From the NCBI GenBank assembly GCA_044892525.1, contig CM097885.1, positions 28,956,001 to 29,020,000 of the forward strand: a stretch of DNA of 64,000 bases, given 5' to 3'. Positions within the stretch are counted from its first letter, which is position 1. Each line of letters opens with the position of its first letter. The translations under genes and the position numbers were made by a program. The notes beneath the pieces are model-generated. The model searched no databases, was not told where the DNA came from, and saw nothing but the letters and a program-made list of their open reading frames with translations. The DNA is from Schmidtea polychroa (taxonomy: Eukaryota). Of this stretch, positions 4,756 to 25,765 are shown piece by piece.

Positions 4756-4908
4756 ATAATTTCATCCCGTGTAATTTCGTCTCAGTGTAATTTCATCCTG
4801 TGTAATTTCATCTCAGTGTAATTTCATCCCGTGTAATTTCGTCTTGTGTAATTTCGTCTTGTGTAATTTCGTCTTGTGTAATTTCGTCTTGTGTAATTTT
4901 GTCATGTA
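4756..4908. repeat. Tandem repeat, 15-16 bp unit (GTGTAATTTCRTCY)
   Basis: About 10 directly visible copies; abuts the truncated 3' end of the retroelement. Confidence 0.9.
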
Positions 4909-5168
4909 ACCTTAATTTCTACTAACTTTAATATTTCCTTTTCCGCTCTCTTCAAACTTCTATTTTCTTTTCTTCGACCAACTGGCAATTATGTTTCTTT
5001 GCTGGTTCCTTTTATACTTGACCTGTCAATTGATTTTAATTCGTCAAGCCCTTCGTATCCAATTTCCCGGGCTTCCTCCTATCTCTTTCTCTCATTATTC
5101 TAATTTAATTTTTGTCGGCCGATCTAATTTCCCCTTTGATCTACCATTTAGGCTCTCCCAAGACGCTA

Positions 5169-5284
5169 GGGCTTTCCATTATCTCGGGCTTCCCATTATC
5201 TCGGGTTTTTCATTATCTCGGGTTTCCCATTAGCTCGGGTTCTCCATTAGCTCGGGTTTCCCATTAGCTCGGGCTTCCCATTAG
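5169..5284. repeat. 17 bp tandem repeat (GGGYTTYCCATTAKCTC) x ~7 in retroelement 3' region
   Basis: Directly visible copies. Confidence 0.9.
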
Positions 5285-5791
5285 TTAATTAATTTTTAAT
5301 TAATTTTTGTTTTTTTGTAATTTATTCTTTCTAGGGACCCCCCATTGATTTTATTTTATTATATTTGAACTCGTCTCATAATTTGGCATCCGCCCATACC
5401 AGTTTCCCCCGAAATTATTCAATTTTTGTTTTTTTGATTATTTTAATTAATCTCTTTGTATTTTAAATTTATTATTATGAATTTGGTGTTTTCATTGATT
5501 TTCACCTCAATTTTGTATCTCTTTTATTGAACCCCAACATTATATAATACTGATACCGCGCTTATATAAAGATATAAAATACTGTTACATAAATAATTAT
5601 AGTGTACTTACTTTTTACAATTTATATACAGTCATAATCCGTTTAAATGCGTAGGTTTGGAGGGCGCTGAGCATTCCAGGCCTCCACCCACTGTTCCTGA
5701 TTAATTTTACTTGGTTTTTCCACTCGATGCTGGAAATTTTTGATTCTGGTTATCTCTAGTTCTCCGCGATGCCGTCTGTCTTTGATTATTT

Positions 5792-8700
5792 TTATTGTCC
5801 CCCCCCCATTATGATCAAAAATGCCCCAGTTATTATTATTCCGCTGATCCACATCATTTGTTTTACGCTTATGATTTCTGATTTATCTTTGTTTGTGGTT
5901 GTTGATGTCGTCTCTGTATTTTTATGACTACCGCCTTTGCCATTTCCTTCTATCCTTCCTCGTATTCTTGCTATCTCCTCGTTCATACCTTCCTTTGCCA
6001 TTTTTTGTATTTTTTCCATTTCTTCTTCTGACACATAATTATCTTGATATTTCTCACTGGTTTTCTTGCGCTTTCCTTCCTCATCTTTTTCATAATTGCC
6101 TTTTCTTTTCTTCCCCCTTTTCCCTGGGTATCGTCGACATTCTCTTTCTGGACCGTTTCTCAGGATACAGACCGTATATTCCTTTGGCGGTTGTTGTTGC
6201 GTTACATATTGTAGGCAGTCTTCTCCTGGTCCTAGTCTTGAAATACAAACTTTGTGTTCTTTCCTTGGCTGAAGTTGTGTTATCACTATCTCACCTCCTT
6301 TACTCAGGTGTACCTCTTTCCATTTGACTTTTGTTATTTTCTTCCCGTTTCGATGTTGGTACGCTTCTTGTATTCCCACTTCTGTTATTGGTTCCGCATC
6401 TTCATTTTTTAACACTAGTCTCTGATACGCTCTAGACATGCATCTTCCAAATATACACCTTTCTTTTAGATCCCATTCCTCTTTTAAATCCCATTGTTGG
6501 TCTTGTACTCGTTTTTTCTTTTCTTGATTTAGTTCCTCTTCCTTGTTGTTGTTCTTTTCCGATTCTTTAGCTTCTTTTAACATTCTCATTCCTCCATGAG
6601 CTGTTATCATATCCACCATTGTTAGCACAATTATCATTAATATCATATTCGTCTCTATTTCCTTGTTGGTGAAAAGTAGGCATACCCTCTGTTTTTCATT
6701 GTTCGTCTTTCCCTCTTCCTTTGTTTGGTTTCTCGGTTTATTTTCCTCCTTTTTTACACTTGAGTCGTTATTCCTTTGATTATTTTCCTCTGATTTCTTT
6801 TCCTTTCTATCGTCGTTTCGCCCTTTTCTATCATTATCGTCGTCTCCATTATCTTTATCTCCCCCGCTGTCGTTTGAAATGTCGTCCTCGACATTTATAT
6901 CATTTATCAATCTGCGGTATGCTGTTAACACTCTGTTTCTCGCTAATTTTACTTCGAATTCGAACTCTTTTCTGCCTGTTGCCGCATGCCTCTTTCTATT
7001 CCATTTCTTGACTAATTCTCTCAATTGGATACGACGATGTTTTCCGATTTGCTTTTGTTCATTTTGATTTTGCGTGAATTTGAGGTCTTCCCGGTTTAAT
7101 ACGATCAGTATGATTTTAGGAGTTCCTCCTTTTGTCAGCGTATTTTTAACCATTGCGTTTTCTCCGCTTTCGTAGAACTCGTTGATATTGACTGCATATT
7201 TATTGCTTTGTGGTATTTTCCATGTTAACAGTAACTTCATGGCTTCTGAGTTTTTCCGGACTGTATTCCATTGGAACTGTGACGTGTTTTTACGGATATT
7301 TTCTACCTCAGTTTTTGTTGCATTTTTACAGATGAATCTGATCATTTCCAAATTTGGTTGTATTGTCGCCCAATCCATGGTGGAATTTCCTTCGTGTGAT
7401 ATTTCGTCAAGTCTTGATCCTGATTGATGTAGTATATGTAGTGTTTTCGGGTGTATATTTGTTATTGCTGCATACATCATTGCTGTTTCACCTTGTTCGT
7501 TTTTAGCGTTTGATTCTTCTCCTAAATCTCTGAGAATTCTTATGATTGTTATTGGTCGGTTTTCTTTTGCTGCTAATATTGCTTGCTGTAATGGTGTTCT
7601 TGAATCTTTTGTTGGTATAGTAAATGCTAGTGGTATGAATGTTTTTATTTTACTTATATCTAGGTTTGTGGTTTGATCTCTTGCGTAGTTGTGTACTGTC
7701 TTTATTATTTTCGCTAGTGTCGCTTCGTCAGATAAATCTCGCATTTCTTCGAAGAACACCTCTTTGGCTTTACGTATTACTATCACTTGATCTGAGTTCA
7801 TTTTCTTTGGTTTACTTACGGTTGTTATATCAGTTGTTATTTGATCGACTGGTTCCTCAGACTCTCTGATCACCACTTTCGTTGTTTTTGCCTTTTTTCT
7901 GTTGGAACTGTTAATGCGTTCCTCCGCCGTAAGAACTTGAATGATGCTTAGGTAGTTTTCGCGAATGTTATTCATGGTTTCCATCATATATAGAACACTC
8001 ACGGTTTCCCAAAATTTCACTTGTACTTCGTTGGTGAATTGAGATATGGATTTTTCGAAATTGCTAATTCGCTTCCCGATTAGTTGTTCGTCTTTGTGGT
8101 TTGAGAGCTTTATACCTCGTTGTAGTAGTTGATTTGGAATTTCAAACAGATGATGTCCTCTCATAGCTTCTCTCATCAAGGTATTTTCCCCTCTTGTAAA
8201 ATGTTCGTTTATGTCTATCATATAATCGTTTCTGATCGGGTTTCTCCACGAAATTAATATCCCAGTGATTGTTATCAATTTCTCCTTGATCGCTGCTAAT
8301 AATCCGTCGTACATGTTTCCTACTTCTCTGTTATCTTCGTATGACAATAGATCTAATAGGATTATGAATGCTTCAGTACTTTTCCCTTCGATTGCATGAT
8401 GTAGTGCATTTTTCTGATTATGATCTTGCGTGGTTATCTTTGACCCTGTCTCAAGTAATGCAGTAATAATATCTTTAGTTTTATTGCGATTTGCTGCTAT
8501 CATCAGTGGGGTGTAACCTCGATTGTTTTCTTGATCTGTCGAAATGTTACAGTCGTGAAACGCTTCGATTGTTTCCAGTATCTGTTCATTATTTCCAACT
8601 TTTAAGAGCTTGTGTAGTGGTGTGTCTCCGTAGTGATCTGTGATCGTGAACAATATAGGCCATTGGCTTTTAACTATTCTGAGTAATGGGTGTGTTCTTT

Positions 8701-11149
8701 CTCGATTCGCATAGTTTTCTATCATTGTTAGTAGACCTCCCAATATCTCGAAATCCAATTTATCTTTTGCCCATCCTGGTATTTTAACTTTTACCTCCTT
8801 TATAATTTTCTCGGCTTCTGATGGTTGTAGCCCCAATCGATTGCCTGTTGGTTCGTGTATCTGTTGTAACATGTTCATTCTATACGTTTGTGATCTTGTT
8901 GTTAACGTTCGCCCTTCCGGCTGACTAGTCGCAGTTTTCGGTATTGGTTTACATCGCACCACATTTACATATATCGGCCTTGTAAAAGGATTGTCTACTA
9001 ATCGTACTCTTACGTTAGTTTCTCCGACGAATAAAATCTCATACGGTCCTTTGCCGTTTCGTTGTAATTTCCTGGTGGTTCCGGGGATTAATTCTGGTGT
9101 TTCGATCATCACCCAATCGCCTGTTTGAAATGTATGTTGTTTAACGTTTTTCTTTCTATCATGCAAATCTTTGTAGCTTTCTTGATAAAACTTTATATTT
9201 AATCCTGCAGTTTCCCAGATTTCTTGCATTCTTTCTTTAAATTTTGTTACGTAGTCGTCTATTTCCATGTATTGGGATATTGGTGGTTGATACTCTAAAT
9301 CCATTGGCATATTGCATTCTCTGCCATACATCAACTTGAACGGACTCATCTTTGTGGATGCGTGAATTGACATCCTGTAGGCCATTAAACATAATTTTAT
9401 ATACTCATCCCAATCCCGTTGATGACGGTCGACATAATTTGATAACATTTGAATGAGCGTCCCGTTGAATCTTTCTGTCATGCCATTTGTTTGTGGATGG
9501 TACGGTGATGTTCTTAATTTTGCAATCTTGAAGTAGTTGGTTACTTCGCTCATTATTTCGCTCATGAAATTTGTTCCTTGATCAGTTAGTATCTGTTTAG
9601 GCGTTCCATATCGGCAACATATTTCCTTTACTAGTATTTTCGCTATTGTTTTTGCTTTCTGATCTGCCATAGCAAATGCCTCGGGGAATTTAGTCAAATA
9701 GTCCGTGATCACCAATATATAGATGTTTCCTCTGTCTGATTCTGGTAGTGGACCGACTACGTCCATTGATATCATTGTCATTGGTTCCGCTGGCACTGGC
9801 ATTGGCGTTAATGGTGCTTTCCATTTTGTTCCCGTATTTTTTCTTGTTGCGCAGGTTATACAATTTTTCACCCATTCTGTTACGTCTTCAGGTAACGTCG
9901 GCCAGAAGTATTTTTGTTTCATTCGAGCCAGCGTCTTTTTTGATGACATATGTCCTCCGAGTCTTCCGTCGTGGTATTGTGTTAACAAATCTTTACGTCT
10001 ATTCTCTGGGATACACATGAGTCTCTTTTCACCATCCATTATCAATAACCAATCTTTTTCTATTATATATCGGTGTCGGTGTTTATCCATATGCTCTTTC
10101 AACTTTTGATCTTTCTCATATACCTCCGCTTTCCCTGTTTTCACATATTCAATAATTTGCTTCAACTCCACATCTTCCTGTTGGTCTTTCCGTAATTGGC
10201 AAAAATCTAAATCTTCCGCTACCATCAGACATATCCGTTGCATTTCGTGATCTACTAAATCTGGAAAAATAAATCTTGACATGCAATCTGCATTGGCATT
10301 CGCTCTTCCCGCTTTGAATTTTATGAACGGCGAATATTCTTGCAACTGCATTGCCCATCGCATCAACCTGCTTGAAGCTTCTTTATGTTGTCCGAGCCAT
10401 ACTAATGGTTGATGGTCAGTGGTTATGCATATTTCGTGACCCCATAACAAATATCGAAAATGTTTAATCGCTTGTATTATGGCTAACGCTTCGCGCTCGG
10501 TTACGGAATAGTTTCTCTCATGCTTTTTAAACGTTCTGCTGTAATAGCCGATTACTCTTTCTTTTCCTTCCTCATCTAGTTGTCCTAGTATTGCTCCGGC
10601 TGCATACCCACTTGCATCTGTTGCTAGTAAGAACGGTTTCTTGAAATCCGGATGTACTAGTATTGGAGCTTCAATCAATTTATCTCGTAATGTCTCAAAT
10701 GCTTTTTGTTGTTCTGCACCCCAAATAAATGAAGTATCCTTTTTCACTAATTCCTGGATTGGTTTCGCAATACCTGCGTAGTTTTTAATGAATTTCCGAT
10801 AATATCCGCATAATCCGAGAAATTCTTGAACTTGGGTAACAGTTTTTGGTGCTGGACAGGTTTTTATTTTCTCTATATTTCTGGGATCTGGTTCTTTGCC
10901 TTTTGCTGACACTATGTGTCCCAAAAACGTGACTTTCTCTTTTGCCCAATCACATTTTGATGGTTTGAGTTTCAACTTCCATTGTCGTAATCGAATGAAC
11001 ACGTTTCTGATATCTTCCAAGTGTTGTTCATATGTTGCTGAATATATTAACAAATCATCAATATATACCATGCACTGCTTGATTCCGTGTGTGACAAAAT
11101 TCATACATCTTTGAAAGGACGCTGGAGCGTTGGTTAGTCCAAATGGCAT
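5792..11149 (-). CDS. pol: Pol C-terminal part: RT palm, RNase H, integrase, two ankyrin-repeat modules, membrane-anchored tail
   Basis: MPFGLTNAP, YIDD, LATDASG, H-x6-H/CxxC zinc motif, DVVGP, TDQGTNF, ERFNGTL, GPY, and ankyrin motifs GDTPLH, GYTPLMIAA, GETAMMYAA. Probably continues to 5643 through a frameshift in the C run near 5800. Confidence 0.93.
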   Translation of the reverse strand: MPFGLTNAPASFQRCMNFVTHGIKQCMVYIDDLLIYSATYEQHLEDIRNVFIRLRQWKLKLKPSKCDWAKEKVTFLGHIVSAKGKEPDPRNIEKIKTCPAPKTVTQVQEFLGLCGYYRKFIKNYAGIAKPIQELVKKDTSFIWGAEQQKAFETLRDKLIEAPILVHPDFKKPFLLATDASGYAAGAILGQLDEEGKERVIGYYSRTFKKHERNYSVTEREALAIIQAIKHFRYLLWGHEICITTDHQPLVWLGQHKEASSRLMRWAMQLQEYSPFIKFKAGRANANADCMSRFIFPDLVDHEMQRICLMVAEDLDFCQLRKDQQEDVELKQIIEYVKTGKAEVYEKDQKLKEHMDKHRHRYIIEKDWLLIMDGEKRLMCIPENRRKDLLTQYHDGRLGGHMSSKKTLARMKQKYFWPTLPEDVTEWVKNCITCATRKNTGTKWKAPLTPMPVPAEPMTMISMDVVGPLPESDRGNIYILVITDYLTKFPEAFAMADQKAKTIAKILVKEICCRYGTPKQILTDQGTNFMSEIMSEVTNYFKIAKLRTSPYHPQTNGMTERFNGTLIQMLSNYVDRHQRDWDEYIKLCLMAYRMSIHASTKMSPFKLMYGRECNMPMDLEYQPPISQYMEIDDYVTKFKERMQEIWETAGLNIKFYQESYKDLHDRKKNVKQHTFQTGDWVMIETPELIPGTTRKLQRNGKGPYEILFVGETNVRVRLVDNPFTRPIYVNVVRCKPIPKTATSQPEGRTLTTRSQTYRMNMLQQIHEPTGNRLGLQPSEAEKIIKEVKVKIPGWAKDKLDFEILGGLLTMIENYANRERTHPLLRIVKSQWPILFTITDHYGDTPLHKLLKVGNNEQILETIEAFHDCNISTDQENNRGYTPLMIAANRNKTKDIITALLETGSKITTQDHNQKNALHHAIEGKSTEAFIILLDLLSYEDNREVGNMYDGLLAAIKEKLITITGILISWRNPIRNDYMIDINEHFTRGENTLMREAMRGHHLFEIPNQLLQRGIKLSNHKDEQLIGKRISNFEKSISQFTNEVQVKFWETVSVLYMMETMNNIRENYLSIIQVLTAEERINSSNRKKAKTTKVVIRESEEPVDQITTDITTVSKPKKMNSDQVIVIRKAKEVFFEEMRDLSDEATLAKIIKTVHNYARDQTTNLDISKIKTFIPLAFTIPTKDSRTPLQQAILAAKENRPITIIRILRDLGEESNAKNEQGETAMMYAAITNIHPKTLHILHQSGSRLDEISHEGNSTMDWATIQPNLEMIRFICKNATKTEVENIRKNTSQFQWNTVRKNSEAMKLLLTWKIPQSNKYAVNINEFYESGENAMVKNTLTKGGTPKIILIVLNREDLKFTQNQNEQKQIGKHRRIQLRELVKKWNRKRHAATGRKEFEFEVKLARNRVLTAYRRLINDINVEDDISNDSGGDKDNGDDDNDRKGRNDDRKEKKSEENNQRNNDSSVKKEENKPRNQTKEEGKTNNEKQRVCLLFTNKEIETNMILMIIVLTMVDMITAHGGMRMLKEAKESEKNNNKEEELNQEKKKRVQDQQWDLKEEWDLKERCIFGRCMSRAYQRLVLKNEDAEPITEVGIQEAYQHRNGKKITKVKWKEVHLSKGGEIVITQLQPRKEHKVCISRLGPGEDCLQYVTQQQPPKEYTVCILRNGPERECRRYPGKRGKKRKGNYEKDEEGKRKKTSEKYQDNYVSEEEMEKIQKMAKEGMNEEIARIRGRIEGNGKGGSHKNTETTSTTTNKDKSEIISVKQMMWISGIIITGAFLIIMGGGQ

Positions 11150-11170
11150 TTTCCTGAATTGATATAGATC

Positions 11171-12550
11171 TCAGCCCAATGTAAATGCTGTTTTCTCTTT
11201 GTCTTCCTCTTTGACCTTGATCTGCCAATATCCGCTTTTCAGATCTAAAGCCGTAAAATATGCGGCCCCTTGTAACATAAGTAACATCTCATTGATATCT
11301 GGTAGCGGGTATGTGTCTCTTTTCGTTACCGCATTTAGTTTCCGATAATCGATACAGAATCTCTGAGTACCGTCTTTTTTCTTCACCATAACTACTGGAA
11401 ATTGCCATGGTGAACAACTTGGTTCTATTACTTGTGCATCTAGCATCTTTTGCACTTCTGCTTCAGCTATTTCTTTTTGCTTTTCCGCTAGTTTATATGG
11501 ACGTAATGCGATTGGAGTTTCGTCTATCAACGGTATTGCGTGTAAAGTAACATCGCATGCTCCCAAATCTAAATCTGAAATTGCGAATATATCTTTATAT
11601 TCTATCAATAATTGCTGAAGTTTTCCCTTTTCATTCTCTGTTAGCAAGGTACTATCGATTGTCCATAATTCGTCAGCCTTGATTGGTTCGTCGGTGACTT
11701 TTGGTAATTCAATTTCCATCATCGGTGTTAATCTACCCAATCTTTCATTCTCATATATGATCTTATCTTCTTCCTCGAAATTCGTGATGTTAATTGGTAT
11801 TTCTCCTTCTCCATTGATTGTTATTATTTCCCTTGCTAATGGTAATTCTCGTCTTTTTTCGAATGATTTGCTTGGTTCGAATATGGCTTCTCCTTCCATT
11901 CCTGCGTCTACTTTTATTTGACATATCATTTGCGACTTTGCTGGTACAATTATTCTCTCCGGACATCTAATTGTTGCATTCATCTTACATATTCTACCCA
12001 TTTTATCTTTCAGACACATTGTTGTTAGATCTATTACTACTTCCTTGAACAATTCGGGCATCAAATCTGTTCCGGTGATGCATGGTTCGCTAAGTTTCGG
12101 TATTACAGCTAAATAGGTTTCGATTTCATTATCTTGATATCGTAACGTGGTCCACCATCTTCCTACTACGTCTACGGTTTCTTTGCTGCATGCGATGATG
12201 TGGATCGTTGTTTGCTCAATATCCTTCCAATACTTACTTGGTATTTGGTTTATTGCTATCGCTGATACGTTTGCTCCTGTATCTATCATTGCGCTTGTCT
12301 CTTTTCCGTTGATTTGGATCATGACTGTGACTGCTGCGCCTCCTGGTGAACTCATTACTGCTATTGTTCTCACATCATCCGCTTGATCTACACTTTTGGT
12401 TCTTCTAGTTGGCATATAATGCATCCTGGTTGACTTGGTAGCTGTGGATACATATTTTGTGTCATGGTCAAAGCTGTTTGTTGTCCAACGATATCCGGTG
12501 ATATATAACTCCCGTTGGCGATCCAGGTGTTTGTCTTTTCCTTTTCCCAA
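11171..12550 (-). pseudogene. pol: Retropepsin protease, spacer and RT N-terminus (separated from the rest of pol by one in-frame TGA)
   Basis: IDTGA, SPWQFPVVMVKKKDG, RFCIDYRKLN, LDLKSGYWQ. TLG*DLYQFRK-MPFG reads in frame into the 11149 ORF. The relevant coding part starts near 12400. Confidence 0.9.
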
Positions 12551-14716
12551 TACGGTGCTGTTTCTATCGGCTTTTCGTTCGGATTTCTACTTGGATACAG
12601 ACATTTATCGTTCCCTTCATCGTTGTCATCGCTATCGCTGCTGTTGGATCGATTTCTGAATTTATCCAGAAATTTCGGTTTGTTCTTCTTTAATTGGGTT
12701 CTTGTGGCTTCATCATACATTACTTTCCGGAATCGTCTACCAACTTCTTCGTCAGTCCCTTTTATTTTTGTTAGTATTTTAATTAATCGTTTTATTCTAT
12801 GGATGTCTTTTGAGTGACCGTGCAATACCATGGTTTTTGCCAAGAATGGTAGGAATCCTACTATCATTTTCCAATTCACTTTCTTTTCTCGCTTGTATAT
12901 ATCAAAACAAGCTAACATTTGTGTTAGTATTACTCTGACAATTTGGATTATGAGTATGATTCCCAATATTCCGGCCATCATTTGTCCGAAAACCAAGAAT
13001 CTTCCCCACATCGCTTTCATCATATTTGATGTTGCTTGTTGAAAATGGTCTGGAGATAATAGTAGCTCGTAATTTGGACCTGATTGATAATTTGTTCCCC
13101 CAGTTATCGTTACCATATTTGACAGAATAGATTCTCGTCTGGCTGGGAAGAGTACGTTAAGTCGTGCTGTTTCTAGATCTTCTGGGCAATACATACCTCC
13201 GTTTGATACGTCAATGGGTTTGAAGACTTGTTCCGTGGCGAGTTCTATTAATCCAAATTTCTTGGGCTCCTCTGTTATGGATTTTACCGGTAACATTATC
13301 CATTTCCCATCGGGTCTTTCATACAATGGTCCGTACGCATTAGAACAGTTAAATAGATTTGGGTAGAAGCCTACTGGGTTCATAATTCTGGTGACTGGTT
13401 GGACGAATCGATTTTGTCCTTTATAACGAATCTCTAATTCATTTGCACATTTCTTTTCTGGTAGCGTGGATTTTTCTGGCATTCGTGCATACCTCTTGGT
13501 ACATTGGTATATGTACATCACTTCTCCCACCATTCTACCAAAATGTCCATCAGGTAAAGGGAGTGATGGCATCGTATTATCTGGGTGTGTTATCGCGATA
13601 GCTAGTTTCGTTTTTAATATCTCTTTATTTAACGAACAATCGTCGTTTTGTATCAGGTCGTAATAGACTTTTTGCAAGGTCGTTTGTCCGCGGTGAAATA
13701 GAAAGTCCATTTTGTTATTGGCGTATAGGTATAACTTGACGTCCTCGGTGGCTATCTTTCCCACTGCTCTATCGATTATTTGTCTCGACATATAGATACC
13801 AGCGTAGTTGGTTTTATATACTATACTATCGCATTTGGTGGTTTCTTTCTCTTTGATGAATCTCATACCTAGGTCAGGATCGTCTGTGATTAGTGCCATT
13901 GGTGTTTTCTGCGTTGAGAGTCTTTTTTTCTCTGGGCGATGGTGGCACTGGTTTTCCATTTCGCATTCGCACTCTTCCATTTCCCTCCTTGTCATCTTCG
14001 TTCTCATAGATTTCTCCTTTTACCTCATTGAACAAAGCACTTTTTAACAGTTGGAGTCGGCATTTTTGGGTATTAGCTTCATATATGATGGTCGATACTC
14101 CTGTTCTACATACGTTTTCCGTAGCTCTACAAGCTGGGTTGGTTTTCATTTGGTAATTATTGGCGTCAAATTGCGCTTCGTATTCTTTTAATTCGACCGT
14201 ATAGGACTCGATCACTACTACTCCCGATATCACCTCGCCTCGAATCGTATAGGTACCTCCGTTGCATGATCCATCTGATGATTTTACTTTTCCGGACACA
14301 TAAACACTTTCAGTTTTGATCATTCCGGTTTGTCCGTGTATCGTTACTCCGTTATGCATTTTCATCGCTCCTGTTCTAAAGAGCTCTTTACAGTCCTCTC
14401 TTTGTATTTGCACGATTTCTTTATCTAATCCGGGTAGTATGAGAGTCGAATACGAATATTGTCCGCAATAATATGCGAGTACCTTCTTCGATACTACGCA
14501 TTCCCTTGCTTGTGTTCTGATGAAATCTGATTCTTGATATACATGGTAGGTAACTTTGGTGTTCACTATGTCCAATTTGTTGGGTGACGCCTGTCTGCAT
14601 TCTTCTATATCTCTCAATGAGTATTTATCTCTCATTACCATATTATCGCAATCGTAAATCGTGAAACTTGTTGCCCCACTTGTACATAACATCCATATCA
14701 TCATAGTCATCATTAA
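12388..14716 (-). pseudogene. env: Envelope glycoprotein, chuvirus-G-like, split by a frameshift near 13900
   Basis: Signal-like LMMTMMIWMLCTSGATS, then FTIYDC..YSLRDIEEC..YQESDF..ECVV..YYCGQYSYS. C-terminal half GEVMYIYQC..CANEL..FVQPVTRI..CS. TM segment WGRFLVFGQMMAGILGIILIIQIV. Confidence 0.75.
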
Positions 14717-14839
14717 TGAGTTGATCGACGCTTTCCTGCTGGCTGGATCTTTCATTGGTAATTCCCATTCTAGTTCATTCAATAGTTTTTTCAATCGAAC
14801 TTGCATTGATCTTTCCTGCTCGTTTTTTCGTGGCGCTTG

Positions 14840-15226
14840 TATTAATCTTTTCCATCCTCCGGCACGGATAATATGTGGTTCGATTGTATTTTCTATGATT
14901 GTAACTGTCATTTCTACATGATTTGCGAATTGTTTGTTAGGTATTTTCCTCGCTGCTAATCCCATCAGATTGTACATTAAATACGTTAGCACTACTAGAT
15001 GATGTTCGTCGTCGTTTTCTTTTAAGGTTAATTGTTCGATCACCCTTCTGGTCTCTTCCCAATCTGTCTTAGTGGTCTTGGTTTTCTCTTTTATTAATTT
15101 CGGAATTATTCCGGATATTATATTCCACAGTTGTCTGGCTTCTGCACTTGCTACCTTTCGTTGCCATAATCGTCTCAATTGCGGGTTGGTTATTATTAGC
15201 ATATCTTTTACTAACTCTCGTATCCA
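14840..15226 (-). CDS. Putative Bcl-2-like helical domain within the polyprotein
   Basis: BH2-like IEPHIIRAGGWKRLI preceded by a BH1-positioned hydrophobic helix (RRVIEQL...HLVVLTYLMYNL). The NWGR motif is not conserved. Confidence 0.5.
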
Positions 15227-15301
15227 CCTTTCACCTCTTTCGATGGTTGGTTGGGCTTCTTTTAGATTCCACACTATTTTATCCAGTTTCTCCAATCTGA
15301 T

Positions 15302-17204
15302 TTATCCTTGTTCTTGTTTTAGTTGTTCTCTGGTTTTAAATTCTGGTTTCTCTCCTTGTTTCTTGGGTCTTCCTTTTGCCCGTTTTTCCATCATTGTTCC
15401 AGCTTCTCTTGTCATTTCGTAACTCGGGTTTCTCTCATTATCTGTTCTTTGTAATGAGCTATCGTTATTTCTCAACCATTCATTCCATTCATCTATTATT
15501 TTATCGGTTTGACCTTCTGGTGTTATTCTGGTTGGTTCATTTTGTTTCCTGAATTGGTCATCCGTTTCGGTTTCCGTAGTATTGTCGATGATTTCTTCGA
15601 TGTTTAGTTTTGTTGGTGGTTGGTAACTTGTTGATGGTTGGTTGTTAGTCCATATTTCTGCCCCTGTCGGCCGTCTTACTAGAATTGGTGATCTTTCTCC
15701 AGCTTCTTCGTCGCTGTCTTCTAGTATGATCTCCTCGATTTCCTTGGTTTCGTTCGATTTACTTGGCCCTTTGTCAGGACTTGGTCTACTCAGGCTACCT
15801 TTCGCGGGTCTGCTGGATTTGGTTTTCCTTTTGATGGGTTTTCCTAATGTTTCTGCCATTGTCAATACATTGATTTCCCCCAATCTCATGGGTGTTATTC
15901 CGACATCCGCATTATCATCTAGTGATTTTCCTCGTAGTTGTAAATGGAATGGCGTTTCGTATGCTAATTTCTTTTTTAATTCTCTGATTTTTGTTGTTGG
16001 ATGCACTTCTATTTCCTCGATGCTTTTGTCGGGGTATTTGATTCGGATATGATACCTTTTGGTTTCTCCATTTTCTAATAATTTGTTCTAGCTGTTCTGG
16101 ATACCATTCATTATACTGTCGGTATTCCTCTATCGCTTTCGCCATTTCTCTCAGATTGTGGATATTCTCCGATGTCTTTAGAATGATGTTAGCCAATGCT
16201 ACCACTTGTCGTTTTTGGTTTTTTGCTCCCATTGCTAAGATATCATTTAATTGTTTATATCTTTCTTTCTCTTCCCGTTCTCTCGCTTCTATTGCTTCTT
16301 CGCCGTCCATATCGGCATATTCACGTTCCTTTTTTCTCATTGCATGAATATGTCTAGTTTCTGTTTCGCTTTCAGACGTGACATCTGTTTCACTTTCGTC
16401 ATCTGATATTGGTTCTATTTCGTCTTCTTCGTATTTCGGAGGTTCATCTTCCTCTTCTTCTGACTCACTTTCTATCTCACCGATGTCTGTTTCTACGAAA
16501 ACTCCTTTCCTGATTTCCCATTCTTTATTTTTCGCATTCCACATCCTTTCCCACGGGGTTCGTCTGCAAGATCTAGTACTCAGTTTCTTTATTTTCCCTT
16601 GTAGTTCTTTTTCGTTTAGCCATTGTTGATGCATTTCAATTATCTCTACTGATTTTTGGTATAACGTCTTCATCCTATCTCGTATCTCTTTCTGGTAAGT
16701 TACATCCCTTGTTCGGAATTCGTCCATGGGCAATATTCTAATTATTTGATGATTATCCCATATTCCCATTTCGCTTAACGAGGTGTCGTCTTCAGCCCGT
16801 AATATTATTTTATCGTACATCATAACCGCATCATCTATCATGCCATCGCTACTCTCGCTTCGTACTTTTTCCGTTATCTCTTGGTTTATTTTTGATACCA
16901 AGTCATCCACTGTACTCTGGTTGCTCATTTTCATTCGTCGTTTTTCTTCGTTCGGTAACCATAGGGTTATTTCTAATTTCTGTGGTTGTGCTTCTTTTAA
17001 CCTTCCATATTTGTGAATCAAATTGATGGTTCTCCAATCACTCATCCTGAGCAATTCAGTATCGCGTAATCGACTCATTAGTTCATGCATCGCTGAGGCT
17101 CGTCTTGCTATGAGTAAATCCCAGTTATCCTCGACTTGTTCTTGGATTTGTTTGATTAATTTATCTAAATTTCGTCGTAAAGTGCATTGTTTTAGTTGTT
17201 CCAA
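15302..17204 (-). pseudogene. Polyprotein segment with two ubiquitin-like domains and acidic/low-complexity linkers (frameshift near 16080)
   Basis: Ubl at 16731-16979 (STVDDLVSKI..YDKIIL..DDTSLSEMGI) and at 15857-16054 (YHIRIKYPDKSIEEIEVHPTTKIRELKKKL..LQLRGKSLDD). In frame with gag upstream and with the Bcl-2/env ORF downstream, across stop codons. Confidence 0.65.
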
Positions 17205-17270
17205 TTTCAGCTTGATATTAAAATCGTATTCAGCCTTGGCGTCCTTAGCCCATTCCTAAATGTTAGCGGG

Positions 17271-19760
17271 TTATTTTTCTTTATGCAACTTAAATATTTG
17301 GGTTTCTCCTGGCCAAATTAGTGCGTCAATTAGGTGCATATCTGGTCGGATTTGTTCTCCTTGATATTGATATAGATACTCTTTCTTCCTCGAACTACCT
17401 AAATGTTCCCTGATCCAATCGAAAAGCTCATCGGTAACTGCATTTTTTATCCATATTCTCAGGAGTCCTTTGCTCGTCCCGATTTTTATTACATAGCGTG
17501 TCGTATCTGCTTGTTTCATTTTTTCCATATACTTCTTTATTATCGTTTTTTCCTCGCTTGGAATTAGATCTTTCTCGTCTCTTTCTAGTTTCATTATCTT
17601 TTGTATGAAGCGTCTATATGGTATAATGTCAATTAATTCCTGGTTTCTTACTACCACTGGAAGTATTTCTTTTACTTGTTTTATCGCTTCTTCTCTTTCT
17701 TTTCTCAATTTTATCTCGATATTCTCATCTTCACTTTCACTTGTTACATCGCTTTCGCTCTCACTTTCGTGCTCTTCTGCCCCAATCTTTTCTCTCAGTT
17801 GTTCGATATTTTCATTTAACTGGAATATTTCTCCACCAAGGCTACTTACATAATCCTCCTCGTCATCTGTTGACAATACCTTTTTTGTCGTCCTCATCAT
17901 ATTAATTCGTAAATTTCTCATTCTTGGTACTCTCTTTAACCTTTTATTCTCGAATATCGTTAGCTCTTCTGAGTCTAATTCTTGTATCATATCATGATTT
18001 AGATGATTAATCTGTTTCTCATTTTCGTTATTTCCCGCTTCCGCTTCTGTTTTGATTTTCTCGTGTTCCCTTTCGATTTTATCTTTTATCTTTTTCCAGA
18101 ATATTTTCTGAATTCTCTGATTTCCCTTTAGCGGAGTTCTTGGATTTTCCTTTTTAGCTTCTGTAATCGTTTCTTTCGGTTTCTCCGGTTCGATCAATGG
18201 GGCTACTCGTGGATTTTTACCGTAGTTATAACAATATTGCTCTTTTATCTCTTTTACCATTCTCATCATATTTATTCGTAACGGTTGTTCCTGTCGCTGC
18301 TGAATTCGCTCTCTTTTTATTCTCTCTTCTTCGGCTTGTAATCTCTGCCATTCTTGTGCATGTTGTTGTACTTCATAACTATTGAGATTTTCAGTGCTTC
18401 TCATCATACGGATATTCTGAGTTTGTTGTGGTACTTGTTCTTGTCTTGGTCTCATCATTTGTTGCATCATCTGTTTCATTTGTGAAATCTCTTGCATTAC
18501 ATTCATTTGTTTTCCTTCACTGGGGTTACTTTGTCGTTGCGGATTTGGTGCATAATTATTATTTCGCTGTGGTGGTCGTTGTTGTTGGCTCCTCTCTCGG
18601 CATTCTCTTGAGATATGACCTGGTTGACCACAGTTATAACATGCTCTTGCTTGACATATGTTCTCCGTATGTCCTCGTCGTCCGCATCGGTTACAACTTG
18701 CATTTCTATAGCAATCTCTATCCCAATGCCCTAGTTTTCCGCATGTTCGACATTGTTTATTTTCGTTCATATTTCTCCTGTTATTGGAGTTATTTCCGTT
18801 GGTCATATTGTTACGCTCGCTACTATTTCCACTAGGTCGTCCTTGTGGTGGTTTGAAAATTTGGTGTGCTCCTGGTATAAACTGATTCATCTTTGGTTCA
18901 TGATTATTATGATCGTTATTCTCGGCTTTCACCGTTGCTGTCGCGATTCTTCCCTCTTCTTGCATGACATTCATTTGTGCTGGGAGGTGAAGTTCGCATT
19001 TCGTGGCCCAATCTATAGCCTCTTCCATTGTTTTGCACATTTGACATCCCACCGAGGCCCGTACCTCTTCTCGGCGTAGTCCTTCTACGAAATAACCAAT
19101 TAGGTTTTCCTCCGGTAAGTTTCCGTTCATGGCCTTCTTGGCCAGTCTTCGCAATTCACTTGCATATAACGTTATTGATTCGTTTGTTCTTTGTTTTCTA
19201 CTTGCCAGTTCGTTTAGCGCTTGATTAATTGGTTTGCTGGCTCCGAAAGTTTTCCGCAAAAATGTTTTAATACTTTCCCAATTATTCAATGTCGCATTTC
19301 TTTCTTTTTCTTCTAGGTACACTTCGAGTGCGCTATCGCACAAAAACAAAGGCATTCGTTTACTGATTGCTTCCTCTGACCATCCGCACACCGTTGTGTA
19401 AACTTCAAAGTTGGTTATAAACGCTGCTAATTTATTCGCATTCCCATTGAAGGGTTCGCCTCTGAATTTCTCCTTATACTCTTCTGGTTTGCTAACATTC
19501 GTCATGATCGGTTCTTGAAGTTCTACGATTTCTTTTAAATTATCTAACGATGTGGCTAAACTATGGGTGGATAGTTCTTCGGTTGATGCTGTTAGACTGT
19601 TCGTTATATCGTTTATGCTTTCTCTGCTTCTAGATCGACTTGGGGTAACTCGGGTTGTTGGGCTTTCTTTGTCGTCTATTGGTATTCTGGTGGTTTCGTT
19701 AGGTCCTTGTGATAATCCTCTTTTATGGCGATTTGGTCTTGTTCTTTTGATGCTTTGCAA
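17271..19760 (-). CDS. gag: Gag (capsid domain, three CCHC zinc knuckles) with C-terminal extension including a Ubl-like domain
   Basis: PFNG..FITNFE..W..LFLCDSAL capsid-like region; CRTCGKLGHWDRDC, CNRCGRRGHTENIC, CYNCGQPGHISREC. The frame stays open upstream to about 19865, so the true start is uncertain. Confidence 0.9.
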   Translation of the reverse strand: MQSIKRTRPNRHKRGLSQGPNETTRIPIDDKESPTTRVTPSRSRSRESINDITNSLTASTEELSTHSLATSLDNLKEIVELQEPIMTNVSKPEEYKEKFRGEPFNGNANKLAAFITNFEVYTTVCGWSEEAISKRMPLFLCDSALEVYLEEKERNATLNNWESIKTFLRKTFGASKPINQALNELASRKQRTNESITLYASELRRLAKKAMNGNLPEENLIGYFVEGLRREEVRASVGCQMCKTMEEAIDWATKCELHLPAQMNVMQEEGRIATATVKAENNDHNNHEPKMNQFIPGAHQIFKPPQGRPSGNSSERNNMTNGNNSNNRRNMNENKQCRTCGKLGHWDRDCYRNASCNRCGRRGHTENICQARACYNCGQPGHISRECRERSQQQRPPQRNNNYAPNPQRQSNPSEGKQMNVMQEISQMKQMMQQMMRPRQEQVPQQTQNIRMMRSTENLNSYEVQQHAQEWQRLQAEEERIKRERIQQRQEQPLRINMMRMVKEIKEQYCYNYGKNPRVAPLIEPEKPKETITEAKKENPRTPLKGNQRIQKIFWKKIKDKIEREHEKIKTEAEAGNNENEKQINHLNHDMIQELDSEELTIFENKRLKRVPRMRNLRINMMRTTKKVLSTDDEEDYVSSLGGEIFQLNENIEQLREKIGAEEHESESESDVTSESEDENIEIKLRKEREEAIKQVKEILPVVVRNQELIDIIPYRRFIQKIMKLERDEKDLIPSEEKTIIKKYMEKMKQADTTRYVIKIGTSKGLLRIWIKNAVTDELFDWIREHLGSSRKKEYLYQYQGEQIRPDMHLIDALIWPGETQIFKLHKEK

Positions 19761-20827
19761 TTGTTCTACTGAAAATAATGTATCGTATTGATTACTTGAG
19801 GATCTGAGCGTTCTTTGATTTGCCGTGATTTCTACCTGTAGTCCCTTTATCTCTCTTAGTTTCCTTTACTGGGTCGGGTTCCGAATTAGATGTCTTCGGT
19901 ACTCGGTATAGTCTCTTCAAAGAATATTCCACGTAGTTTTCCGGCGGATTTCCTGAGGAGATATCTGAGTCCTTGATTGGCTTCTGCTAGTACGTCGATG
20001 CTAAGTATTTCGATGATTCCGTCGTAGATGAAAACGTCGTCGTTGTCCTCCGTGTTGAATGGGTTGGTTTTCTTTTGCGCGGGTTCTGAATTGACGTCCA
20101 CTGGATTGTTAGTCTATCTTTTCCAAATTCATTCTGAACTGGTTCTGAATTGACTTGGTGGAATTGATATCTACAATGAAAAAATGATATCGTGTTGCAT
20201 TTGCTTACACGAATCAATCATTCCTTTTTTCCACATTCAAGCACAAACACCGTTTTAGGGCCTCTGTTATGCTTCTCTTCCTTTCCCCGTATAATCTTCG
20301 TGGAATATAATTACCCATCAACCCATAATTTTCGTCGATTTTAAATTATCTATTTGGGGTAGTAACAATTATCTATATGGTCGTATAAATAATCCATAAT
20401 TATCATTTATAATATCGATAAGTCGTTGTCGGTTACTGCTTATTACCCCCCATATTTTCTTAATCCTTTCACGCGGTTCCGCTATTTTACTTAATCTTTC
20501 GTCTCTGTTTCCCTTACTCGGTTCTACTCTGGAACCGAAAACAAAATTCGTTTATCTGGTTTAAACCCAAAAAAAAATTCTGTAGGACTTTGTCTACTTA
20601 CCTGGGATCCCCTTTAATTAATTATTTTCCTCCTTTACTCATTATTTATTCACGTTTATTCTTTATTTTCATTATCTCCTTAATCCATTTTCCTTTTCTA
20701 TTTCTACTTTTTTACTAAAAGAATTTTATTATTTCTTCACGAGCTCGTTTAATCCTCTCTATATTCGAATTCCCGTATCTAAATTCAATTCGTTCTAGCT
20801 AGCTTTATTATTCTATTCTATTATTCG

Positions 20828-21014
20828 CTTAACGTGATTTCATGGTAGGCATAATGCCTTCTCACTAGTGGCAATAATTGCTATCTCACTATTAGCTTAA
20901 CGCTATTTTTTGGTAGGCATAATGCCTTCTCACTAGTAGCAATAATTGCTATCTCACTATTAGCTTAACGCTATTTTTTGGTATGCATAATGCCTTCTCA
21001 CTATCTCACTATTA
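20828..21014. repeat. 68 bp tandem repeat x ~3 with internal palindromes in the retroelement leader
   Basis: Units start at 20828, 20895 and 20963; the first two contain AGGCATAATGCCT and RGCAATAATTGCT, the third is shortened. Confidence 0.9.
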
Positions 21015-21745
21015 TTCTAGACCTTTACGACTGGCTGGCTTTTTCAACAGCTCAATCTTCATTATTCTGACCGACTGGACCTTTCACAACTCGGCTTTAA
21101 TATCCCTGACCGGCTGAACTCTTCCGCAGCACGGCCCTAATATCTCTTACTATGCATGCTTTCACTTCCTGCTTTTCTTTTATTCTAATTCTCATTTTTC
21201 CCATTTTTATTTTTTAATTTGTCGACTTACTCTTTACCGCTTGAGAATGTTTTTCCCCTTTCCCCCTTGCTCAAAACGCAAAACGATCGCATTGGTCCAT
21301 TTCTACATTGGTATGGTGATCAGCCATACCGCAGAAACTTTCCAATATTCGCGATGGTACCTCGCCTTACATCTCTTACTCGGGGTGATCGGTTCTCCCT
21401 TCCCCAACGGTTTTACAAAAATCGTACCTCCCGAAGGTGGCTCGGTTTATTCCCCCCTTTAACCCTATATTGGGACTAATTCCACTTTATATAATCAATT
21501 TAACTTTTAAAAATACCTTTTCTTCATGGTGAAATTATAATAACACACATCGAATTATAACTTCGCATAATGAAATGAATACACAAAAAAAAACAAAAAA
21601 TGATTTATTGATCATTCAGTTCCTATTACATATAATAAATAATATCATCGTAAAACATTACAAAATTAAATCGAAATCAAAATATCAAAATGTTTAGTCT
21701 CATTGTTAATCATCCAATTTCCTTCACCGAGCGACGATCGCGTGC

Positions 21746-22225
21746 CTAACTGAAATAGATCGTGTGCTTCTCTTTTATTACACAGGTACACATAGAACAA
21801 CGGATTAGACTGGCGGCGCATTCGTCACAATGGCTAAGGTGCCCACAAGGTAGAATCAGAATTTTGGCAGGTCGCGTCTTGCAAATGTTGCACGTTCTCA
21901 AGGCCGCTGCTTTCTCTATGATCAAGACTCGTATTCTCTTAGACAGAGTTTTTACTTGTTCGCGTATTTTCACATATTCGATGTTCAAAGCGGGGTCGTC
22001 GAGTCGTTGTTGCATCCATTGGTAGTGGATAGATAAGTCAGTGTCGTTATTTGTTGATCCTAATCTGTCTGTTAAAAAGTTTTGCTTGGATATGAGTGGT
22101 GCGTTGTGGCGTTGTTGTTCTAGGGTCTCTATTTGTTGCAATTTCTTTCTTAACGTCTTTAGTGAGTCGATTTCGATGTCGACGAACCGGCTTAATCGTT
22201 GTAGATGTTGTCGGGCTTCTGACAT
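21746..22225 (-). CDS. Coiled-coil plus C-terminal IAP-type RING finger protein
   Basis: CNICKTRPAKILILPCGHLSHCDECAASLIRCSMC...IYFS at the extreme C-terminus; intact ATG-to-stop ORF; no BIR domain seen. Confidence 0.85.
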   Translation of the reverse strand: MSEARQHLQRLSRFVDIEIDSLKTLRKKLQQIETLEQQRHNAPLISKQNFLTDRLGSTNNDTDLSIHYQWMQQRLDDPALNIEYVKIREQVKTLSKRIRVLIIEKAAALRTCNICKTRPAKILILPCGHLSHCDECAASLIRCSMCTCVIKEKHTIYFS

Positions 22226-22637
22226 ATCTCAAGAAATGTGTTGTCATTACTCGGTTTCACTTATAAAAATAAAATAATATTATTGTGTTGTAATCGATAT
22301 TTGTTTGGTTTTAATTCGTGATTGTTTCTAGTTTATGTATTTTATTCAATCTCTAACAATTCCCCCTTTTTTTTTAATTTAATAAATTAAGATTAAACAA
22401 AATTAGCCAATTCCCGTTTTCTTCTCTCATCATGCTCAATCATATTCATTCATACCCATTTAGATTCATTTTATTCGCATCGTACTTTATTTCGAACTTG
22501 AGCAATCCGTATAATCATTCCATTGCAGTATAATATCGAATTACTTTGTTTCGGTCCCGTTTCTGTGTCGTTATCGTCATTAATTGTTAATCTAACGCAT
22601 TATAATACAATAATAGGTAATTACACAAATCAAATTC

Positions 22638-22655
22638 ATCCCGGCTGAGCCCCCA
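22638..22655 (-). promoter_or_regulatory. Primer binding site, tRNA-Pro-like
   Basis: TGGGGGCTCAGCCGGGAT matches the canonical tRNA-Pro PBS TGGGGGCTCGTCCGGGAT at 16 of 18 nt and lies 7 nt inside the LTR end CCAACA. Confidence 0.85.
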
Positions 22656-23152
22656 AAAATCATGTTGGCATATGTGGGGAAAGAAAATGTGCACACACAA
22701 TTTCCCTACCTATCAAACGTCAGTATTCTGCTCAGACCATTCCCTCACACATTCCATATGATTATTCATATATTCCCACGTATGAGCCCGTGGTGATGTT
22801 CCACGTTGGTGATGCTCACACGGGTCGACAAAGGTTAGCAGGTGAGCCCCTGCCTTAGGACTACTCCTAACCCCTGCTCGGTTCGGGTCCTACGGTGCCT
22901 TAGAAGGTCTTACCCTTGTTACTCATATAATTCAGTCCAACCTCGGTCCAAAGGGGACGACATTTGAGTTCAAATCATATCTCCAAAATCACTTTCCTAT
23001 TTAAATCAATCAACGCAATTCACACATACAACTAACATACTCAAAGAAACCGAACAGTTGTATTGAAACAAACAATAACGAAAAACATTTAAAGGGATAT
23101 TCACTATTAACTGAATAACAACCAAACATTGAAAATCATACGCCAGACAATG

Positions 23153-23968
23153 TCAATTCTTGGAGTTCTTTCTCAATACAGGGAATCGAGACTCATGAGA
23201 GAAGTTGTTACGAGAATGCTTCTCCTTCCCGAGCATTTTGTCAATATCGACGGGTAAATAGTGATCCGTGACATATTTAATTCCTCCCGCCGGAACTATC
23301 TTAAAAATCTCCTTGGAGGGAATTGAATGATTCGAGGATATTTCCTTTATGGCGGAGTTAGCTGCGGATAACGACGCTTCGAGAGCTGCCATCGCATCTC
23401 GGCGTTTCTGGTTTTTCTCGGCTCGGGTTGGCCGTTTCCGTTTGCGAGATGATGGACGGTTATCCGCGTTCGAGGTGACGACAGGTGCTATTAAGATGGG
23501 AGCTAAGATTGGATCGGTAGGTCCACCTACCAAAGGTTGATAGCTTGATAACGTTGGAGCCGGAACTGGTGGCAAATATGAACCATGCCCTTGACAGCTG
23601 GGGGTAGTCGATTGAGATATTTGATGATGGGAAGGAAAAACATTCGATCCATCCAATACGGGATATTCGCGTACTCGCTTTGCTATTTCTGCCTCCGTGT
23701 AAACCTTATGGAGGGCTTCTGATTGTGCTTTTATTGTGAGCCTTTGACATCGGCTCTCTTCCAGTAGGCTGTCCCTACAGTGCTCCAGCCTGAGGATCTT
23801 AGCCTTTTCCTCCTTCATCTGTGGCGGGGAGAACCACGTTCTTTCGTAAAAATCTATCCTCTTCTTGAGGGCCCCTATATATAAATGGAGTTGCGCGATG
23901 TCCGAGTTCTTGTCAGAGCAAGAGAAACACGGACGCAGTTCTTTGGCTTTAGTGGAGAGTACTGACAT
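23153..23968 (-). CDS. Orphan 271 aa ORF inside the LTR (CxxC, coiled coil, Pro-rich, basic NLS-like RKRKRP)
   Basis: Intact ATG ORF; ATG immediately preceded by acceptor-like TTTATTTTCTAG. Confidence 0.6.
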   Translation of the reverse strand: MSVLSTKAKELRPCFSCSDKNSDIAQLHLYIGALKKRIDFYERTWFSPPQMKEEKAKILRLEHCRDSLLEESRCQRLTIKAQSEALHKVYTEAEIAKRVREYPVLDGSNVFPSHHQISQSTTPSCQGHGSYLPPVPAPTLSSYQPLVGGPTDPILAPILIAPVVTSNADNRPSSRKRKRPTRAEKNQKRRDAMAALEASLSAANSAIKEISSNHSIPSKEIFKIVPAGGIKYVTDHYLPVDIDKMLGKEKHSRNNFSHESRFPVLRKNSKN

Positions 23969-25567
23969 CTAGAAAATAAATCATGTTTCACACTTAAAAG
24001 CCACAATCATTATCCTATTAGTTGAAATTAGAACCTATACTCAGAAAATTCGTCCATCACGCCAATCAACAGCCTCTACTAAGATGACTTGTTTCACTCG
24101 TCCGCACATCCTACATTCACTCATTTACGAAACAGCATTCAAACGCATTGCTTTAATCAAGATACTCAAGGGAAGAAGACGGGGAATATTAAATTCAATT
24201 CATTACTGAAAAATCTTCAATTTACTCTATATAATAAGGAGTTGTATGTTAATTTCTATATCAGTGTTAAACCTGAGGTTCATAATGACGAGTTAAAATT
24301 TAACAAATACAATAATATGTGGAAATTAAATTATATCATTAACGTGGAAAAATTCAAATTATGTCATAATGCATCGAAAGTTAAATTATACAAATTTTGT
24401 AACCGGCGCTATATTCGTCGTCATGGTGACGTCTACTTGTGTGTATGGGTGTATCAAACTCTCAGTGCTGGCGATGCGAGTTCGTGTGCCTAGGTACGAT
24501 AATTTCAACTCACGTTTTTTCTCATAGTGTTCATTTCATCTACCTCAGTGTAACAGATGTCATCTACTCATTCGTACTACCCACTGTCTCTTTCTCTCCA
24601 GGAGCTGTCATAAATTATTATGTAATACTACTATTATGGATGAAATCTATTGCCTAACTCGAATTGGCGTTTAGTGGAGAAGAGATTAACTATGGGGTGT
24701 ATAAGTGCTTGTAATGTACGAGTCCTAGTGGCTTATCACTTTGTCGGAGACGTCATGAGTAATGTGTCGTAGATACAGCACTACCATAAGACTGACAGAA
24801 AATTCGAACTGGGATGGACAACCTAAATCTCTTATCGTACGATCGACTCTAATCAACATCTACCTACGCATCTACACAGTCAGCTCGTTATGTACATCAG
24901 TCGGTATTTATCTCTGTCAGAGTTTCGTCGGGTATTCAATTCGGGCGGTTATCATCTGCCTAGACTTCACTCCTCAGTTCACTGATAAATCTCACAGCGA
25001 TTCCCTTGATTCAAATAATAATTAACTGATAAGTCTGACAGCGATTTCTTGCGCTTTTGTAGTAAGTACTCTGATAACTTCTCCTGGTTTATTTACTCGA
25101 TTTTCGGGAAAACGACGCTTATCGTAAATTCAAGGTCGACAATCTCACTTAAAAGTACATCGGCGAACGGGTGTGGGCGCTAATGTCCTCATGATCTAAA
25201 TCGAATGATGTCTCAAGAACAGTCTATTGCCGGATTCCATTCAGAGCTATTCGTGTTGTGAGCAACAAAGATTCATTCTGACCACTCTGATCGACAAGCG
25301 GATATCGGACACAAGAAAATGTTCTCTTATCGAGGTGGATTTTTATTAACAAGTGGCAAATGTAACGGTGCTTTTCTTTTCAATCTGAATCGTCTTTTGG
25401 AAATCTAAGTTGTATCCACATTTCTCAGAAGAACCGGTTAACTGGATATAATGACAAAGAGAAATTCTATAAGCGACCGTGATCGGTGAAGGAAATTCTC
25501 ACTGTGTAATTAAATTCTCTAAGCTCCTGAGTTTCCTCACCCCTCATGACCACCCAAGAAGGCATTC

Positions 25568-25765
25568 ATTGCTGCCGCCGTTCTTGCACCGTCATGAGGG
25601 ACAAATCGACCCTTTCACATTTCGATAATCAAAAATTCACATGCAATTATAATGATGATAGATAATAAATAAAAAACAAATTACTCGACGACCCTATCAT
25701 TTGGACTCCAAGTGTGATGCTCCCTCATTCCCAAATCACCAGTTCAAATCCAGCATTAATTAGTA
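25568..25765 (+). repeat. 198 bp direct duplication, left copy (right copy 41161-41358)
   Basis: ATTGCTGCCG...CATTAATTAGTA occurs on both sides of the Polinton; one substitution seen. Confidence 0.95.

Follow-up and report, generated by a model that had tools for sequence, protein, structure and literature searches.

The Bcl-2-like domain that had been noted in this stretch of Schmidtea polychroa DNA (64,000 nucleotides, hereafter the window) is confirmed: a segment of about eight helices, encoded on the minus strand within the stop-to-stop frame 13874-15301 and placed before the signal sequence of an envelope glycoprotein (Env), is predicted by template-free modelling to adopt the Bcl-2 fold. 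The element that carries it is filed as a decayed Burro-type Ty3/gypsy retrotransposon, an assignment made by its layout and not by a match to the named elements Burro-1 to -4 (Table 1). Burro elements were reportedly described by Jurka 2007 and Grohme et al. 2018, and they are treated by Arkhipova and Yushenova 2019 (PMC6431247). A BCL2-like motif at this position of Burro is already known and has been in print since 2018-2019; it was recorded for Burro-2, -3 and -4 with credit to Grohme et al. 2018 (PMC6431247), where section 7 gives it as a motif note without structure, BH analysis or test. This earlier record had escaped the first-pass annotation. PMC11410931 and PMC13238120 name Burro and nothing more. 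A structural or functional study of the Burro BCL2-like domain was not found in the literature, and Grohme et al. 2018 and Lee et al. 2026 may contain one. New in the present analysis are the support at the level of the fold, the mostly synonymous variation among copies, the occurrence of the domain in metagenome relatives together with its absence from four others, its position before the Env signal as a possible shared anchor, and Glu-His as a natural variant of BH1. The fold support, the shared signal or anchor and the natural BH1 variants make the known motif newly testable.

Table 1. Features of the Burro-type element in window coordinates
Feature	Position	Strand	Basis and remarks
Whole element, approximate	4740..25560	-	GC 37-41% vs 27-30% in flanks, strand-skewed; limits inferred
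Separate ORF with IAP-type RING finger, upstream of Gag	21746..22228	-	PF13920 E 6.4e-9
Polyprotein region, about 4,690 codons (14,074 nt)	5792..19865	-	seven frames
Gag capsid domain and CCHC zinc knuckles	18597..19352	-	PF03732 E 1e-9, PF00098 E 2e-9
Ubiquitin-like domain, upstream of Bcl-2-fold domain	15860..16048	-	Pfam ubiquitin E 0.017, below cut-off
Bcl-2-fold domain (eight predicted helices)	14837..15229	-	AlphaFold2 on alignment A2; helix coordinates; VIA matches
BH1-equivalent (helix 4 end, helix 5 start)	14984..15040	-	A2 and its match to Bcl-xL
BH2-like motif with GGW	14840..14884	-	alignment / Bcl-xL profile match
Hydrophobic signal-like sequence directly before Env; candidate membrane anchor	14669..14746	-	hydropathy
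Env, Monjiviricetes-type (gB-like, class III) fusion glycoprotein	12892..14668	-	PF24664 E 8.5e-27 and 1.3e-43; broken by frameshift
Aspartyl protease	12050..12325	-	PF00077 E 7.4e-9
Reverse transcriptase (RT), RNase H, integrase	9440..11386	-	PF00078, PF17917, PF17921, PF00665; one in-frame stop in RT
Ankyrin repeats	7301..8623	-	PF12796 E 2.2e-19; limits approximate

Homologues, predicted fold and BH motifs

Taken alone, the Pfam match of the domain to the Bcl-2 family (PF00452) is weak, at 16.6 bits and E 0.011 against a curated cut-off of 31.4; the best score among the relatives, 17.6 bits, also lies under the cut-off (as does P0012), and in the other six of the eight domains scanned Pfam found no Bcl-2 at E <= 1. 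As a single sequence the window domain gave no match to the PDB with phmmer and no homologue among the representatives, the near-length proteins, IMG/VR or the contigs of a first metagenome scan, while a search of longer proteins returned one match, P0001, which is 57% identical and terminates inside the domain. With the RT-integrase region as the query, long proteins yielded 38 matches, six of which are unbroken polyproteins that share this Env, and an Env scan of metagenome contigs yielded 12 loci. A related domain occupies the pre-Env slot of P0012, P0016, L001, L002, L003, L008 and L012. These seven relatives and the window make up the eight rows of alignment A2, which includes no cellular Bcl-2 sequence and comprises five lineages with 12-27% identity between them.

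A profile of the seven relatives, from which the window row had been removed after the columns were aligned with it present, recognises the window domain over its full length at E 8e-8 (591 targets), the next unrelated target reaching only E 0.17. The full profile additionally recovers L007 (E 6e-20) and L011 (E 1e-17), neither of which was used in training, so that the domain is found in 7 of the 12 metagenome loci, namely all that score with the profile (five training rows plus these two); at the remaining five the slot is not reached or the Env start is absent. Four intact relatives (P0013, P0014, P0015 and P0018) give no score with the profile, and their pre-Env slot holds unrelated coiled or acidic sequence. 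Searched against the PDB, the eight-row profile places Bcl-xL at the top (E 0.005), with both BH1 and BH2 aligned in register, and 55 of the 60 rows listed are Bcl-xL/Bcl-2 constructs, the other five being an FNR regulator. Pairwise shuffles were mixed, with 340/1000 for the window against P0012, 7/1000 for the window against P0016 and 0/1000 for P0012 against P0016. Leads from the ESM Atlas (hypothetical phage proteins, and cullin/tethering-complex helices at low recognition) were rejected as weak and unrelated.

Structure prediction, which the first-pass annotation had named as the check on its reading, bore out the fold. AlphaFold2 run on A2 without templates predicts eight helices (pLDDT 79.3, pTM 0.76), and the model has the arrangement that defines the Bcl-2 fold, a bundle of some eight helices packed around a hydrophobic helix 5 at its centre; from the single sequence the model is poor (pLDDT 42.6), and its fold search returned generic helices alone. 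In a VIA fold search of the A2 model against 48,161 chains, ranks 1-34 are all Bcl-2-fold proteins, the best match having a Z of about 13.7-14.0 and an rmsd of 2.7-2.8 A over 135-137 of 140 residues, and the first unrelated chain stands at Z 6.1. The top matches are pro-survival proteins (Bfl-1/A1, Hydra Bcl-2-4, A179L and Bcl-xL; Z 12.9-14.0, tied within about 1 Z), while BAX, BOK and BAK score 11.0-11.7 and A52, A46 and B14 score 8.7, 6.9 and 5.9. Helical proteins can attain a Z of 13-14 in VIA, a caveat that is answered by the coherent family list, the full coverage and the gap in Z. All 35 rows listed by Foldseek belong to the Bcl-2 family, none of them at E <= 0.001 (best 0.008); against viral models the best E was 0.11, with many vBcl-2 rows and none significant.

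The helical region does end in a BH2-like motif, as had been described (12 residues, 14875-14840, minus strand), in which the Ile and the GGW of WIxxxGGW are kept and the first Trp is replaced by His, and the central hydrophobic helix is predicted at 15010-14951 (minus strand). Conservation of GGW in relatives, on which the annotation had staked its reading, holds for GG in all eight aligned rows and for GGW in six. BH1 is degenerate, again as claimed: NWGR reads DDEH in the window, with Glu-His where Bcl-xL has Gly-Arg, in a register derived from the alignment that may be shifted by one. The glycine is retained in six of the eight A2 rows and followed by Lys in three, which by lineage amounts to three of the five, two with Lys next; L007 is like these, and Gly-Arg is absent also from L001. 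Since P0001 shares the Glu at the glycine position, this residue is a lineage trait and not a product of decay. The BH3 motif L-x-x-x-G-D (Leu, three residues, small-Asp; BH3 and BH4 as defined in PMC3847314) was not found in helix 2 of the seven A2 rows that cover this helix, and it may be missing in pro-survival members. Helix 1 has the hydrophobic spacing of BH4 in 7/7 rows, with Met or Leu and not an aromatic residue at the third position. Judged by these alignment-derived motifs, the domain joins the predicted fold to a part of the BH set and does not qualify as a canonical multi-motif member of the Bcl-2 family.

Glu-His in place of the BH1 Gly-Arg would argue against classical BH3 binding in the window lineage. 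The G145E substitution in Bcl-2 leaves no inhibition of apoptosis (PMC2150879), and the BH1 Arg forms a hallmark salt bridge with BH3 ligands, which some poxviral proteins contact through other Arg residues (PMC7719400). The G145E of PMC6078858 was set aside as a telomerase substitution, not one of Bcl-2.

The host element and the Env signal

Burro elements (GYPSM1, Burro-1 to -4) are giant gypsy-like LTR retrotransposons of planarians, over 30 kb in total, with long LTRs, a polyprotein of about 4,900-5,100 residues and MATH, dUTPase-like and BIR motifs; in a 4,873-residue Burro ORF, BCL-2 is preceded by a ubiquitin/SUMO-like motif and followed by Env, which in turn precedes the protease (PMC6431247). 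The element in the window has the same single polyprotein (about 4,700 residues here vs 4,873), accessory ORFs upstream of it, and the same order of Gag (CCHC), ubiquitin-like, BCL2-like, Env, PR, RT, RH, IN and ankyrin; the ubiquitin-like domain reaches a Pfam E of 4.4e-5 in the relative P0012. Unlike Burro as published, the window copy is broken, repeat searches found no LTR pair within the 64-kb window, and Pfam gave no MATH, dUTPase-like or BIR match at E <= 1, the published Burro calls having used HHpred; a pattern scan for BIR was likewise empty. About 21 kb of the element remain, ending at a Polinton, and a search with 16 short motifs revealed no primer-binding site. The polyprotein region is interrupted by three frameshifts and by in-frame stops in three zones, and because three of these six breaks lie upstream of the Bcl-2-fold domain, this copy cannot make the domain as part of a polyprotein. 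The earlier description of a domain in a retrotransposon polyprotein is right for the family, whereas in this copy seven separate frames remain.

Gene order and Env class are also those of the GAG-ENV-POL errantiviruses with an HSV/gB-type Env (PMC13524379), and by eye the window Env is closest to Smed_errantivirus_5 among four Schmidtea rows of its supplement. This likeness and the base composition agree with a planarian host. Bcl and apoptosis are unmentioned in the main text of that paper, and Bcl is absent from its seven supplementary text files. By hydropathy, Env has a transmembrane segment at 13008-12895 (minus strand).

The signal-like sequence before Env is weakly hydrophobic in the window, with a 13-residue hydropathy of 1.62 vs 2.06-3.02 in 11 relatives, and is missed by a 19-residue scan at 1.5. 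In each of the eight carriers covered, a hydrophobic stretch lies 22-62 residues beyond the BH2 GG (48 in the window) and ends 6-9 residues short of the conserved Env start. As the stretch is present in all 12 sequences, carriers or not, together with a small residue three positions ahead of where the conserved part of Env starts, at the likely cleavage site, we regard it as the signal sequence of Env; its retention in the four relatives without the domain makes it primarily Env's. Given a putative cleavage at the Env start, the signal might also serve the Bcl-2-fold piece as its tail anchor. A motif that recurs at domain borders has a candidate at 15874, at the end of the ubiquitin-like domain, where it was picked up by a loose pattern with no control run.

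Copy number in the host is high, with 390-1,407 contig pieces on 1.26 kb in three runs; contigs from run X8, guessed to be RNA, cover the region and give no evidence of expression. Among the best-supported 40 of 308 variant sites between copies, a selected subset that is not equivalent to a formal dN/dS, 18 fall in the domain, of which 14 are synonymous (p 4e-6 vs 25%) and 13 lie at third codon positions; Env is similar, with 16 of 19 synonymous. These counts show that the protein encoded by the frame was being conserved as the family expanded. An RT tree of 14 rows (P0035 was dropped as too short, and L002 and short loci were left out) joins eight Burro-like rows, the window and metagenome relatives, in a supported clade in which carriers and non-carriers of the domain are mixed. 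With its inner fork open, the tree fits either loss of the domain or repeated gain.

Possible roles of the domain

We give about an even chance to the reading that in intact copies the domain acts as a membrane-tethered pro-survival piece that damps apoptosis. The element's protease would cut upstream of the domain, near the end of the ubiquitin-like domain, and free its N-terminus, and signal peptidase would cut at the Env start, so that the piece with the Bcl-2 fold would end in the hydrophobic signal. There the retained signal would replace the tail anchor of cellular Bcl-2 and hold the domain on the cytosolic face of the ER, where, by binding pro-death Bcl-2 proteins of the host, it would damp the apoptosis that arises from transposition or Env load, alongside the IAP-type RING. 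Lineages with Gly-Lys at BH1 would probably use the classical groove, and the Glu-His lineage would need altered contacts. Protection of the host cell is plausible, as the same element encodes the IAP-type RING (best PDB matches to the RINGs of cIAP1, cIAP2 and XIAP, E 2e-9 to 3e-8) and the IAP of Burro1 is reported to protect stem cells. A helix 2 without the L-x-x-x-G-D motif would fit a non-killer. The poxviral DPV022 has unrecognisable BH motifs, yet binds Bak, Bax and Bim (PMC11209288). Against a survival role stand the loss of the BH1 Gly-Arg, the weak hydrophobicity of the candidate anchor and its predicted location at the ER. An ER anchor differs from the mitochondrial site at which Bax and Bak act. 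The domain is also dispensable, given the four intact relatives that do without it.

Several other readings account for parts of the same evidence. It is possible, if rather doubtful, that the Bcl-2 fold serves as a scaffold repurposed like that of vaccinia A52, B14 or A49 and damps innate-immune signalling, autophagy or calcium signalling at the ER by way of a surface distinct from the BH3 groove. The loss of the BH1 Gly-Arg in the window lineage and L001, the fast divergence seen in the low identity between the five A2 lineages, the predicted site at the ER instead of mitochondria, and the precedents for non-apoptotic Bcl-2-fold proteins (A52 and B14, PMC3847314; PMC4358236) all suit a scaffold. 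The model, however, is nearer in Z to pro-survival cellular proteins than to A52, A46 or B14, the BH2 GG is invariant, and the BH1 glycine persists in three of the five lineages, with Lys in two, and in L007. We think it unlikely that the domain now has a structural role in the assembly of particles, as the cytosolic head of an extended Env leader by which Gag is joined to Env at the membrane, much as with the leader peptide of foamy viruses; its fixed position directly before the Env signal in all carriers and the in-frame Gag-Env-Pol arrangement are what such a part would look like, but the unrelated sequence in the slot of the four intact non-carriers means that the fold is not needed.

A role like that of Bax, Bak or Bok, in which the domain promotes death or permeabilises membranes and so aids particle exit, would suit the fold (BAX, BOK and BAK are among the matches) and a membrane tether, but we consider it quite unlikely in view of the missing BH3 motif in helix 2, the lower Z than for pro-survival members and the IAP-type RING in the same element. 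That the likeness is due to chance, an ordinary helical spacer that happens to have GGW, is very improbable and largely refuted: the sub-threshold or absent Pfam matches, the empty PDB search and the poor model from the single sequence would agree with it, but a model built without templates from element sequences alone has the whole Bcl-2 fold and the profile matches Bcl-xL with BH1 and BH2 in register.

The pro-survival reading can be set beside known systems. With viral and cellular Bcl-2-fold proteins (Bfl-1/A1, Bcl-xL, ASFV A179L, EBV BHRF1, DPV022, ORFV125, N1 and A52) the domain shares the predicted eight-helix fold round the hydrophobic helix 5, the BH2 GGW and a hydrophobic segment that would be C-terminal; it differs in being part of a retroelement polyprotein and not a free gene of a large DNA virus, in its identity of only 7-17%, in having no NWGR and no BH3, and in a tail that would be the signal sequence of Env. 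Large DNA viruses characteristically carry Bcl-2 mimics, and a retroelement that keeps one under selection suggests a virus-like management of host cell death. An anti-apoptotic gene borne by Burro is Burro1 B-IAP, which is reported to protect stem cells and support regeneration in planarians (Lee et al. 2026, Dev Cell, as related in PMC13465017), and the window element has its IAP-type RING ORF upstream of Gag. B-IAP consists of BIR plus RING and acts on caspases, whereas no BIR was found in the window copy; the Bcl-2-fold domain would be a second module, inside the polyprotein and acting, if at all, upstream. Given the reported role of the Burro1 IAP in stem cells and regeneration, a second, upstream anti-death module in the family would be easy to test. 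We tentatively raise the possibility that a Bcl-2 gene was captured at the root of a Gag-Env-Pol clade that extends beyond the named Burros of planarians and has been kept there ever since, and that the Env signal peptide serves these elements in two ways, directing Env to the ER and acting as tail anchor for the Bcl-2 protein once released, with the Bcl-2 mode having drifted to a non-classical one here. If so, Bcl-2 and IAP would be two independent apoptosis blocks in one retroelement.

Further features of the element, its relatives and its neighbours

Tandem repeats are present at both ends of the element (20813-21016, 3 x 68 nt; 4739-4920, units of about 15 nt), and upstream of the RING ORF lies a 271-codon accessory ORF without a Pfam match (23153-23968, minus strand). 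A basic Gly-Arg-Pro motif, which we take to be AT-hook-like, is found just upstream of the Bcl-2 slot (15376-15362, minus strand); it also occurs in P0001 and P0012, and in P0014, where the domain is absent. Two more hydrophobic segments stand at the end of the polyprotein (6661-6587 and 5866-5795, minus strand), similar to the polyprotein ends of P0012 and P0013, and these terminal segments would suggest that another membrane protein follows the ankyrins.

Intact Gag-Env-Pol polyproteins of 3,181-4,057 residues (P0012-P0016, P0018, L001 and L002) recur in metagenome assemblies, in clusters of 2-21 members and on contigs of 12-18 kb. Up to three aspartyl-protease-like stretches are seen in P0013, P0014, P0015 and P0018, and behind the polyprotein of L001 an accessory ORF (10617-12104) encodes a DEDD-type exonuclease (PF00929, E 1.4e-5).

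The neighbouring Polinton/Maverick (25771-41162) has open frames for a protein-primed DNA polymerase, a packaging ATPase, an integrase with a phospholipase-A2-like domain and a double-jelly-roll capsid, the capsid gene having one in-frame stop. Long inverted repeats are present, the right one without its terminal bases. On either side of the Polinton stands a copy of a 198-nt direct repeat (99%; 25568-25765 and 41161-41358), which far exceeds the usual 6-bp target duplication and may be an assembly artefact or the result of a rearrangement. A decayed RT at 50598-51597 (plus strand), with a GIY-YIG-like tail by eye, is probably Penelope-like.
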